64,000 nucleotides of DNA. Source: a virus. A model generated the notes under the pieces. It ran no database searches and was not told the DNA's origin. It saw only the letters and a program-made list of their open reading frames with translations. Location: IMG/VR virus record IMGVR_UViG_3300001041_000002, positions 37,420 through 101,419 of that record; one strand, 5' to 3'. A program made the position numbers and the translations under genes. Below are positions 1,165 through 37,662 of the stretch, one piece after another (positions within the stretch are counted from its first letter, which is position 1; every line of letters starts with the position of its first letter).

Positions 1165-1288
1165 CAAATAATAACATTTTAAAACAATAACTATGAATAC
1201 AGAATTAATTGCATTTTTAATAGGTGTTGTTATAGGCATATTTATAGCAATATTATGGATATCGGAAAAAAAATAACACTCCAGCGGC

Positions 1289-4915: not shown

Positions 4916-4996
4916 GGATAGACTGGTAAGTGGGTGAAATCAGCAGACTGTAAATCTGTCGCTTCGGCTATGGGCGTTCAAATCGCTCTCTATCCA
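4916..4996 (+). tRNA. tRNA-Tyr(GUA)
   Basis: GGATAGA/TCTATCC acceptor, GCAGA-CTGTAAA-TCTGT anticodon arm, long variable arm with GC-TTCG-GC, T loop TTCAAAT, discriminator A. Confidence 0.92.
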
Positions 4997-5019
4997 CAAA
5001 TCAAATTTTATGTAATATA

Positions 5020-5436
5020 ATGATATTAAAAACGAAAAACCCAGCATATATGTGTTGGAAGATGATGAAAAATAGATGCTCTAATCCAAATGATCCAAAA
5101 TTTAAAAACCATGGAGGCAGAGGAATAACTGTATGTAAAGAGTGGGTTGAATCATTTGATAGATTTATCCAAGACATAGGAGAAAGACCCGAAGGATATA
5201 CTATAGACAGAATTGACAATAACTTAGGATATTGCAAGGAAAATTGTAAATGGTCATCATATACAGAACAAAACAATAATAAAAACAACAATATACGATT
5301 AACATATAACGGTGAATGTAAAACTGTTTCTGAGTGGGCAAAACACTTAAATATGAATGTACAAACACTATTTTGGAGGATAAATAATAATAAAACGGTC
5401 TCTGAAATATTATTTAATCATACCCAGAAACAATAA
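5020..5436 (+). CDS. HNH-family homing endonuclease
   Basis: GGRGITVCKEW...TIDRIDNNLGYCKENCKW...EQNNN motif; inserted between two RNA genes. Confidence 0.85.
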   Translation: MILKTKNPAYMCWKMMKNRCSNPNDPKFKNHGGRGITVCKEWVESFDRFIQDIGERPEGYTIDRIDNNLGYCKENCKWSSYTEQNNNKNNNIRLTYNGECKTVSEWAKHLNMNVQTLFWRINNNKTVSEILFNHTQKQ

Positions 5437-5461
5437 TAATATTAAAATATACAATTTTTGT

Positions 5462-5735
5462 TGACGCTTATCGAAAGACCGAGTGAGACTCGATGGCAGT
5501 AATCGACTCCTCCACTTACGCACACCAATTGAACGCTAACCGGTCGCGTTAGAACCGTTCGATGGCAACTATTGAGTTGTAAAATAAGGGGGAGAAATAG
5601 TATTGATCAGCGGAATGATTAAATAAGAAGAGAAAATTGTAGCTCTCAAAGGGCAAAACTGTTGAACTTTACCGTGAAGTTGCTATTGCAGCTTAATTAG
5701 GTACGTTTCCTAGGGTGTACGAAAACACCCTAATC
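5462..5735 (+). ncRNA. ssrA: circularly permuted (two-piece) tmRNA
   Basis: Acceptor piece first: T arm TCGAT-GGCAGTA-ATCGA then CTCCTCC-A (5490-5514). Intervening segment 5515-5587. Coding piece starts GGGGGAG (5588), giving a G3.U70 pair. Tag frame 5652-5696 GKTVELYREVAIAA*. Outer ends are approximate. Confidence 0.85.
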
Positions 5736-5751
5736 TTTGAATTCATATATT

Positions 5752-6138
5752 ATGAAATATACAGAATCCGAAATCAGTCTGACTGTGCAAACAGAGGGCT
5801 GTCTTGCTTTACGAGGCAAGTACGAATCACACCCAAAACTTGATGATCAGGGTAATCCAGTGTTCTCAATTGAGCGTAATGCTAAAAATGAGATCGAAAG
5901 AAACCCAGTATTTCAAGTAAAAACAGTTCAATTACCCAAGTATCACAACTGTTCTATCGGAACCAAACTGAACAATCATTTTGTGCAGTGGGCTTTAAGC
6001 AATGAAAGTAAGCCGAAGACTTTGTCTGCCGGTTATTGGAATAAGATGTCTGATCGTCAGAGGCTACATTTTCACGTGACCAAATATGTGTCAGATTTGT
6101 ATGGTGATGCAAAATTCAATTACACAATCTTGGAATAA
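5752..6138 (+). CDS. hypothetical protein
   Basis: ORF, likely ATG at 5752. Confidence 0.7.
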   Translation: MKYTESEISLTVQTEGCLALRGKYESHPKLDDQGNPVFSIERNAKNEIERNPVFQVKTVQLPKYHNCSIGTKLNNHFVQWALSNESKPKTLSAGYWNKMSDRQRLHFHVTKYVSDLYGDAKFNYTILE

Positions 6139-29413: not shown

Positions 29414-30280
29414 ATGGAAGTTACTAAATCCATTCGCAAGTCAATGATTATTCGACCAAGTGGCAGGAGCACTGATTTTATTGCCCCATCATTTGGTCAT
29501 GGATGCCTTTTCTTCAATTGTGCATATTGTTACATGAAGCGTCATAAACCAGAAGGATTGGATGTTGCGACCAATATTAATGACATATTATCTGAAATAA
29601 ACAGTCATGCGTGGTTTGCATCCGTAGAAAAGCCTAATCAGACTCACGATAGATTTGTGAGCTACGACATTTCCTGTAACGAGGATTTTGCCGCACACTC
29701 TAAATTTTATGATGTAGAAAAGATTTTTAATTTCTTTAAAGATCATCCAATAGCTTTTGCATCTTTTGCAACTAAGAAGGTTAATAAATCTTTATTAAAG
29801 TTTAATCCAGATAAAAAAGTTAGGATTAGATTTAGCTTAATGCCATCTAAGTATTCTGATATACTAGAACCATACACTTCGGACATCTTAACTAGAGTGT
29901 CCGCTATAAATGATTTTTTAGAATCTGGATATGAAGTTCATGTTAATTTTAGTCCAGTTATCTATACTTTAGATTGGAAGGAAGAGTATGAAAGATTATT
30001 TTCTCTATTGAACTTAGTAGTTAAAGATGAATACAAAGAGCAAGTGAAGGCTGAGGTTATATTTTTAACACATAATCAAGATAGACATGAGTATAATTTA
30101 GCCAATAAAATTCCAGGTGAAGACTTATTGTGGCAGCCATTAATTCAAGAAGATAAGATTTCTCAATATGGTGGAAAGAATATCAGATATAAAAGAGATT
30201 TTAAAAGTCGATTTATAAATGAATTTACAGAACTACATGATAGGGTTATACCATGGAATAAAATAAGATACATTTTTTAG
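29414..30280 (+). CDS. spore photoproduct lyase-like radical SAM protein
   Basis: GHGCLFFNCAYCY (CX3CX2C), FATK, RIRFSL, VNFSPVI. Confidence 0.85.
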   Translation: MEVTKSIRKSMIIRPSGRSTDFIAPSFGHGCLFFNCAYCYMKRHKPEGLDVATNINDILSEINSHAWFASVEKPNQTHDRFVSYDISCNEDFAAHSKFYDVEKIFNFFKDHPIAFASFATKKVNKSLLKFNPDKKVRIRFSLMPSKYSDILEPYTSDILTRVSAINDFLESGYEVHVNFSPVIYTLDWKEEYERLFSLLNLVVKDEYKEQVKAEVIFLTHNQDRHEYNLANKIPGEDLLWQPLIQEDKISQYGGKNIRYKRDFKSRFINEFTELHDRVIPWNKIRYIF

Positions 30281-37415: not shown

Positions 37416-37662
37416 CACATATAAAGAACTGTATTTGCACGCAGAACCATCGGCAGATTTTGATGAACTCGTGGCAAATGCAGTTCTTAATAATCGTGGA
37501 GAGAAAGTAATTAACTATCTGGATTATGAGATTTCAGCAAGTTTAATGGATTCCATTGTTAGTAGTTTTGAGAAAAGATATAAAATGTCAACTCACGATA
37601 TCAAAGGGTACAGATTTGCAATATATCTAGGATGTAGCCCCAAAACGAAAGTAAATGGATAA
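37384..37662 (+). CDS. hypothetical protein
   Basis: Overlapping ORF ending YLGCSP. Confidence 0.65.
   Translation: MRRNWQKIIHDTYKELYLHAEPSADFDELVANAVLNNRGEKVINYLDYEISASLMDSIVSSFEKRYKMSTHDIKGYRFAIYLGCSPKTKVNG

Follow-up and report, generated by a model that had tools for sequence, protein, structure and literature searches.

Transfer-messenger RNA (tmRNA) is an RNA that frees stalled ribosomes, and its two-piece form is specified by a back-to-front (circularly permuted) gene. The subject of this study is a predicted two-piece tmRNA gene at positions 5450–5735 (+ strand) of a 64,000 nt stretch of DNA, hereafter the window, which corresponds to positions 37420–101419 of a complete 101,419 bp virus record with direct terminal repeats (IMGVR_UViG_3300001041_000002) derived from groundwater metagenomes. 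Phage two-piece tmRNAs have been published for the OM43 phage Melnitz, pelagimyophages and cyanophages, and represent 53 of the 133 unique phage tmRNAs in PMC9004378; the Rfam model RF04321 is a merged model of the alphaproteobacterial, betaproteobacterial and cyanobacterial forms (PMC11915505). For crAss-like phages, Table S1 of PMC9004378 has eight entries marked as 'Permuted' (CrAssphage cr10_1, cr50_1, cr114_1, cr115_1, cr130_1, cr131_1, cr272_1 and cr273_1), and cr106_1 is entered there as 'linear'. In RefSeq, a gene of cr7_1 is annotated as 'transfer-messenger RNA, SsrA', as is the one-piece gene of cr106_1. Furthermore, each of the five Suoliviridae records searched with RF04321 (cr7_1, cr10_1, cr50_1, cr114_1 and cr130_1) scored above the cut-off (49.6–66.4 bits), and our literature search returned no paper that discusses the tmRNA of crAss-like phages in its text. 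Two-piece tmRNAs of the Crassvirales are therefore already public, though undescribed, and the gene in the window is neither a first nor a singular event in this group; a preliminary description of the locus had proposed an independent permutation or a cross-phylum acquisition in a crAss-like phage. That description had also held that the tmRNAs of Bacteroidota are one-piece, in agreement with counts of 24,380 standard versus 48 permuted genes in this phylum (Table S2, PMC11915505). What is new here is a sub-family that ARAGORN misses, T stems closed by pairs other than G53–C61, an alphaproteobacterial-like pair of T- and D-loops (in this copy) and an invariant spacer core.

The gene was detected with RF04321 (tmRNA_permuted), against which positions 5454–5696 aligned over the full model (1–213 of 213) and scored 52.4 bits, the gathering score being 47. 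This match was obtained with permissive filters on positions 5350–5850 (501 nt; E-value 1.7e-9), and was repeated in a search of the whole 101 kb genome (E-value 8.1e-11); among 14 genomes searched as controls, only one exceeded the cut-off. Using the Rfam default filters in gathering mode on the full 64 kb window, only two tRNAs were returned and the tmRNA was missed, whilst the one-piece model RF00023 had no match in the window's genome. Of the tools that the preliminary description had suggested as checks, Rfam supported it in part, with RF04321 over its cut-off and the alphaproteobacterial model RF01849 under it (43.4 bits versus 50, aligning at model positions 82–172 of 355, i.e. the tRNA-like domain only), and ARAGORN, which reported only a tRNA-Ile(UAU) and a tRNA-Tyr(GUA) in the window, did not call the tmRNA. 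An unconstrained minimum free energy (MFE) fold of positions 5445–5740 contained the T arm, a 7 bp acceptor stem with G3.U70 and a long helix closing both pieces. The order of parts is that of a permuted gene: the 3' strand of helix P2, the T arm and the 3' strand of the acceptor stem precede a spacer, which is followed by the 5' strand of the acceptor stem, the D-loop, the 5' strand of P2 and the tag (Table 1). Its acceptor stem, with G3.U70 and the discriminator A73, carries alanine identity elements, and the T arm has a 5 bp stem and a 7 nt loop. P2 is long and interrupted, and in its distal helix the acceptor piece pairs, by its 5' end, with the coding piece. All of the parts placed by the preliminary description, namely the T arm, CUCCUCC with A5514, GGGGGAG, G3.U70, the tag frame and the terminal hairpin, were found at the positions it had given.

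A homologous gene was found by means of a spacer pattern in a 22.9 kb viral contig (L374, positions 624–912; RF04321, 49.1 bits). In its neighbourhood a tRNA-Ile lies directly upstream, and downstream there is a reading frame like the window ORF (open reading frame) at 5752–6135, as judged by eye and not by alignment. The two tmRNA genes are 80 % identical overall, and a comparison of 54 base pairs revealed 15 that had changed on both sides and none that was broken. P2 alone accounts for seven of these compensatory pairs, among the 19 pairs of its proximal and distal parts, again without a broken pair. Both G3.U70 and A73 are invariant, and the 14-codon tag frame is kept with no insertions or deletions (the L374 tag being GKTINLFREVAIAA, then a stop), including a C-terminal REVAIAA that is retained with the synonymous changes CGT>CGC and GAA>GAG. 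A comparison with homologues, which the preliminary description had likewise suggested, accordingly yielded covariation together with a conserved wobble pair and tag frame. The same alignment spoke against the pairing of CGCTTATC with GATCAGCG by which that description had joined the two pieces: when the L374 letters are paired by hand, two positions of this helix do not match, and different partners are chosen in the alignment fold. It was rejected, the conserved pairing being that of 5479–5486 with 5607–5613, extended by the distal helix of 5450–5462 with 5629–5641. Between this distal helix and the GGC resume codon there are 10 nt in the window and 12 nt in L374. The sister gene has a T arm closed by A53–U61 with a UUCGAAU loop, and is devoid of both the GGCAGUA T-loop and an AAAUAGG-type D-loop; its spacer measures 121 nt, compared with 73 nt in the window. 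Its upstream tRNA ends 2 bases before the distal helix, so that in L374 the acceptor piece could gain its 5' end through processing of this tRNA. From the model score, the fold and the covariation, the prediction of a phage-encoded, circularly permuted tmRNA is confirmed at sequence level, and positions 5450–5735 are taken to be a genuine gene of this kind.

Table 1. Predicted features of the two-piece tmRNA gene in the window, with the number of base pairs changed on both sides (compensatory) between the window and L374
Feature	Position	Strand	Compensatory pairs	Remarks
Acceptor piece	5450–5514	+		5' end approximate; 3' end is discriminator A5514; from RF04321 alignment, MFE fold and L374 alignment
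P2 distal helix, 5' strand	5450–5462	+	5	Pairs with 5629–5641; 12 pairs, none broken
P2 proximal strand, CCG-AG-UGA	5479–5486	+	2	Pairs with UCA-G-CGG at 5607–5613; 6 pairs; UG to CA matched by CA to UG
T arm, stem UCGAU/AUCGA, loop GGCAGUA	5490–5506	+	3	Three of the five stem pairs
Acceptor stem, 3' strand, CUCCUCC with A73	5507–5514	+	2 (pairs 5-68 and 6-67)	Followed by CUU, not CCA
Intervening segment (spacer), 73 nt	5515–5587	+		Presumed excised; core 5516–5552 identical in L374
Acceptor stem, 5' strand, GGGGGAG	5588–5594	+	As for 3' strand	7 pairs with 5507–5513; presumed RNase P site and 5' end of coding piece
D-loop analogue, AAAUAGUAUUGA	5595–5606	+		Resembles alphaproteobacterial consensus AAAUAGGAUCGA; partial alignment to RF01849; ACAGGUAUUGA in L374
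Coding-piece strands of P2	5607–5641	+	As for acceptor-piece strands	Proximal 5607–5613, internal loop, distal 5629–5641
Tag frame, GGC...UAA, GKTVELYREVAIAA then stop	5652–5696	+		GGC resume codon 10 nt past distal helix
Hairpin around tag end and stop codon, helix-5-like	5664–5708	+	2	15 pairs, none broken
3'-terminal hairpin of coding piece, 8 bp	5711–5732	+	1	U-tract not conserved; not a consensus terminator

Contigs from four other public runs aligned to the stretch, providing four further variants from brine, a microbial mat and freshwater. The brine contig, which belongs to another study and covers positions 5447–5643, has seven differences in all; of the six that were listed, five are within the spacer, where they fall outside the core or in a loop, and G5483A, the sole listed difference in a mature part, sits in a bulge between the two runs of pairs in the proximal part of P2. 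Its GGCAGUA arm is unchanged, and the combination of an alphaproteobacterial T-loop with a matching D-loop (GGCAGUA with AAAUAGUA) is found in both the window and this variant. In the microbial-mat contig the parts are permuted in the same way, spacer and tag are both homologous, and the tRNA-like domain is fully canonical (GGAC-GCGGG-UUCGAUU-CCCGC-CAGCUCCA, then GGGGCUGACUGGUUUUGAC; T-loop variant GGGUUCGAUUCCC). In the freshwater contigs we identified the tags GKTINLYREVAIAA and GKTVS.., the tag starts among freshwater and brine contigs being GKTINLY.., GKTVS.. and GKTVNLY..; in one run an identical tag stands behind an L374-like upstream sequence. The tag frame is thus free of insertions and deletions across at least five variants. 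The tRNA-like domain changes fast between sister genes, and exists in at least three forms: canonical GGGGCUG with GGUUCGAUUCC, an A53–U61 stem with UUCGAAU, and a U53–A61 stem with GGCAGUA. Judged by these comparisons, the gene is real, is under selection as a two-piece tmRNA and belongs to a small family found in crAss-like phages of aquatic habitats.

Conservation is highest, above that of any mature part, in the core of the spacer, all 37 nt of which (5516–5552) are 100 % identical to L374 708–744. Most of this core recurs in the brine and mat contigs, in one case behind an unlike upstream sequence. As the spacer occurs only once in either genome, an intragenomic repeat or mobile element was ruled out; a tRNA or other known RNA was likewise ruled out, with no Rfam match up to an E-value of 10 and a fold that was not significant (z –1.6). 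Such conservation would not be expected of a spacer that is presumably discarded.

Other searches for relatives were less productive. The tmRNA gene had no blastn match among GenBank phages, and no close copy was found in IMG/VR under a T-loop/acceptor pattern; exact-pattern scans of viral, metagenome and genome contigs were unhelpful, one of them giving chance matches only. Used as bait in viral contigs, the downstream ORF recovered no relative, and a protein homology search with it recovered three. The closest relatives by major capsid protein (MCP), with identities of 90 % or more, are known from fragments in which the tmRNA region is not included.

By its MCP, portal protein and large terminase subunit, the phage is classed as crAss-like, as the preliminary description had held. 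Its MCP is 54–56 % identical to those of the Steigviridae crAss-like phages cr108_1, cr106_1 and crAss001, and the other two proteins match PHROG families with the corresponding annotations. Hosts stated in the related records are Bacteroides, Flavobacterium, Cellulophaga and Azobacteroides, and the host phylum is presumably Bacteroidota. No SmpB domain was found in a six-frame search of the whole 101 kb genome, which extends to the full record what had previously been noted for the window. Neither the tmRNA gene, where A5514 is followed by CUU, nor any of the tRNA genes of the phage encodes a CCA end, and the tmRNA thus fits the processing style of its own genome. With no phage smpB and no encoded CCA, host enzymes would be needed.

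Two further observations concern the surroundings of the gene. An HNH endonuclease gene (PHROG 3377, E-value 2e-48) is located at window positions 5020–5436 (+ strand), between the tRNA-Tyr gene (4916–4997) and the tmRNA gene, whereas in L374 the tRNA-Ile adjoins the tmRNA directly with no HNH gene between them; this looks like an insertion polymorphism of a homing endonuclease in a stable-RNA island. In addition, an identical trailer, CAAAT, directly follows the discriminator of all three phage tRNA genes (window 1165–1170 and 4997–5002; L374 617–622), and may be a shared 3' processing signal.

In our view, positions 5450–5735 are most probably a crAss-like phage gene for a two-piece tmRNA (ssrA) that is functional. 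Arguing for this are the RF04321 score, the MFE fold, the covariation across 54 pairs, the conserved tag frame with its stop hairpin and the neighbourhood of L374, as well as the location of the brine differences in the spacer rather than in the mature parts. Moreover, crAss-like relatives carry tmRNA genes routinely, as is seen from RF00023 exceeding its cut-off in seven of 24 crAss-like relatives of this phage and from the five Suoliviridae matches to RF04321. A single precursor would be transcribed from the tRNA/small-RNA island of the phage, cleaved before G5588 by host RNase P and cut after A5514 by a host 3' processing enzyme, with the CCA supplied by the host CCA-adding enzyme and the 73 nt spacer discarded. 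The acceptor piece (~5450–5514) and the coding piece (5588–~5735) would then be held together by the acceptor stem and the long P2, comprising a proximal part (CCG..UGA with UCA.CGG) and the 12 bp distal helix. Host alanyl-tRNA synthetase (AlaRS) would charge the molecule by way of G3.U70 and A73, and host SmpB and EF-Tu would deliver it to stalled ribosomes. Translation would resume at the GGC at 5652, append (A)GKTVELYREVAIAA, of which the C-terminus would act as a degron, and end in release at the UAA. The distal helix between the pieces, 10 nt before the resume codon, may stand in for pseudoknot 1. For the phage, the benefit would presumably be that host ribosomes are kept available during infection.

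A number of points weigh against this interpretation. G53–C61 is the near-universal closing pair of T stems. In the window its place is taken by U53–A61, and the loop, GGCAGUA, is atypical of the phylum to which the host presumably belongs. Pseudoknot 1 is not evident, and the 10 nt before the resume codon show no room for it, although the folding tools used are blind to pseudoknots. ARAGORN rejects the gene, no RNA sequencing run is listed as containing the stretch, and consensus sigma-70 promoters and intrinsic terminators were not found beyond chance. The covariation is drawn from two full sequences plus partial contig data, and a fit with host SmpB has to be assumed.

Some of these traits would also be expected if the RNA were made and processed but its main effect were to compete with or modulate trans-translation by the host, soaking up SmpB, AlaRS or EF-Tu or re-routing tagging. 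A tmRNA-like RNA of mycobacteriophage DS6A that has no coding sequence is cited as inhibiting endogenous tmRNA in E. coli (PMC11915505), and the missing phage smpB, the unusual T arm (U53–A61, GGCAGUA), the lack of pseudoknot 1 and the fast change of the tRNA-like domain between sister genes would all suit such a role. Unlike DS6A, however, the tag frame, stop and hairpin are conserved here with synonymous changes, which argues that the frame is translated, and we regard a primarily competitive role as improbable. Less probable still is a decaying gene, i.e. a recent pseudogene whose odd T arm and loop represent damage: such a reading would accommodate the U53–A61 pair, the non-standard T-loop, the failure of ARAGORN and a score only 5 bits above the cut-off, but all changed pairs are compensated with none of the 54 broken, the GGCAGUA form recurs unchanged in a brine metagenome of another study, the T- and D-loops have changed jointly to a combination that works in alphaproteobacteria, and the tag frame is intact in all variants.

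The gene was compared with its three nearest counterparts. The two-piece genes of the Suoliviridae belong to the same virus order and share the succession of acceptor piece, spacer and coding piece; all five have G3.U70 and A73 and no encoded CCA, and GGC (Gly) resume codons with tags of 13–14 residues were found in three of the five (cr10_1, cr50_1 and cr114_1). Their T stems, however, are closed by G53–C61 and bear UUCGA-type loops, ARAGORN calls those of cr7_1, cr114_1 and cr10_1 whilst missing the window and L374, and no sequence similarity of their P2 strands to the window was detectable with a hidden Markov model (HMM). Their spacers are 70–214 nt long, and their MCPs only ~25 % identical to that of the window phage. 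In the cr114_1 gene (L387 1410–1852) ARAGORN calls a tRNA-His gene within the spacer, by the same program the cr7_1 gene (L384 1471–1834) has a tRNA-Cys at its 3' end, and the spacers of cr10_1, cr50_1 and cr130_1 contain T-arm-like GGTTCGACTCC motifs; in this family the spacer seems to be a slot for tRNA genes.

With the alphaproteobacterial (alpha-type) two-piece tmRNAs (RF01849; among marine and aquatic phages, for example, Melnitz and the pelagimyophages, PMC9004378) the window gene shares the permuted order, a GGCRGUA T-loop, an AAAUAG-type D-loop and a tag ending in A-I/L-A-A, and ahead of the T arm its P2 strand is similar to the one in viral alpha-type genes. It differs from them in its T stem, since all 120 viral examples fetched have NNGGG/CCCNN (G53–C61) stems rather than UCGAU/AUCGA. 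Of the 119 examples with sufficient sequence to judge, all with a single exception encode CCACCA, which the window does not; furthermore, the window resume codon is Gly and its tag starts with GKTV instead of ANDN, and its host phylum is presumably Bacteroidota. The single example without CCA, L058 (IMGVR_UViG_3300030333_008666), has an alpha-type T arm with its acceptor 3' strand standing alone, after which comes apparent coding sequence instead of a coding piece, and may be an integration-site remnant.

The Steigviridae-like one-piece tmRNAs (e.g. cr106_1, RefSeq tmRNA 29657–29960) come from the closest relatives by capsid protein, and resemble the window gene in lying amid tRNA genes, in lacking an encoded CCA and, in one case (G022), in a tag start of GKTV, a match that was rejected as a sign of relationship because it is not significant on its own. 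In contrast to the window gene, they have the standard gene order, RF00023 scores of 54–97 bits and a UUCGA-type T-loop, with 130–~300 nt between tag stop and T arm, a segment that is absent in the window; there is no significant sequence similarity to the window gene. With frames read by hand, four of these one-piece tmRNAs (in L223, L224, L229 and L226; G013, G017, G022 and G018) apparently specify tags of unusual length, ~30–39 residues, one example starting GKTVKNSIES... and ending ...MLVAA, in RNAs of 305–488 nt. In a further one-piece copy (G016, in L230) the T arm is apparently broken, and RF00023 scored 46.6 bits, just below the cut-off.

Where the window/L374 sub-family came from is a separate question, on which the evidence is conflicting. 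Its descent from crAss-like phage tmRNAs, the alpha-like loops being convergent or exchanged as patches, has a nearly even chance of being correct. Consistent with such descent are a 14-mer, GCCAUAACUGGCAA, at the resume site that is common to L374 and cr114_1, the Gly resume codon shared by the window, L374 and Suoliviridae tags, the lack of an encoded CCA, unlike viral alpha-type genes, and the standard loops seen both in L374 and in the mat contig. Moreover, the two alpha-like patches are separated by a spacer that matches that of L374, its core being identical, and a single recombination patch as the source of both loops was excluded on this ground. A serious candidate, if a somewhat less favoured one, is acquisition from two-piece tmRNAs of the alpha type, which are common among phages of aquatic habitats, with the window keeping the ancestral T- and D-loops, both of which (GGCAGUA and AAAUAG) match RF01849. 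In support of this, an HMM for which 111 alpha-type viral genes supplied the 45 nt ahead of the T arm gave 10.5 bits for the window and 8.7 bits for L374, both above all of 3000 shuffles (maximum 5.2), with Suoliviridae and one-piece crAss-like genes at noise level. Other comparisons favour neither origin: outside the tRNA-like domain, local alignments do no better than shuffled sequence against either crAss-like one-piece or alpha-type phage tmRNAs, an HMM of the tag end, which is generic, does not discriminate, a Suoliviridae HMM finds neither the window nor L374, and the sub-family is represented by only two full sequences. The remaining probability goes to a mosaic or another source.

The preliminary description had treated the T-loop as an alphaproteobacterial signature. 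The motif itself is present; its wider bearing is not upheld, as L374 has UUCGAAU and the mat variant GGGUUCGAUUCCC in its place and RF01849 as a whole falls short of its cut-off. Since sister genes with the same order and a homologous spacer have UUCGA-type loops, GGCAGUA taken alone does not indicate alphaproteobacterial ancestry. A more tentative proposal, which we think possible though rather doubtful, is that one crAss-like two-piece lineage has remodelled its tRNA-like domain on three or more occasions, with the window converging on the paired T- and D-loops of the alpha-type, and that the spacer core is functional as a processing signal or small RNA. Our literature search for a typical Bacteroidota tag string found nothing, and no claim is made on host tags.

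As the mechanism is known and crAss-like two-piece tmRNAs are already in public tables, the gene is a modest addition. Phage tmRNAs have nevertheless been annotated almost only with ARAGORN, which misses the sub-family to which it belongs, and ribosome-rescue RNAs in crAss-like and other Bacteroidota phages are thus probably underestimated. The relatives closest by capsid have one-piece tmRNAs, the Suoliviridae have two-piece tmRNAs, and the present lineage has a two-piece form with a fast-changing tRNA-like domain; such a mixture makes the Crassvirales a good group in which to study how, and how often, tmRNA genes become permuted. In addition, this family can be used to ask if the alpha-type T-loop marks a lineage or is a structural solution that can be re-invented. 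If repeated rebuilding of the tRNA-like domain is true, it would represent a natural experiment on the combinations of T- and D-loop that are tolerated by SmpB, EF-Tu and AlaRS from outside the alphaproteobacteria.

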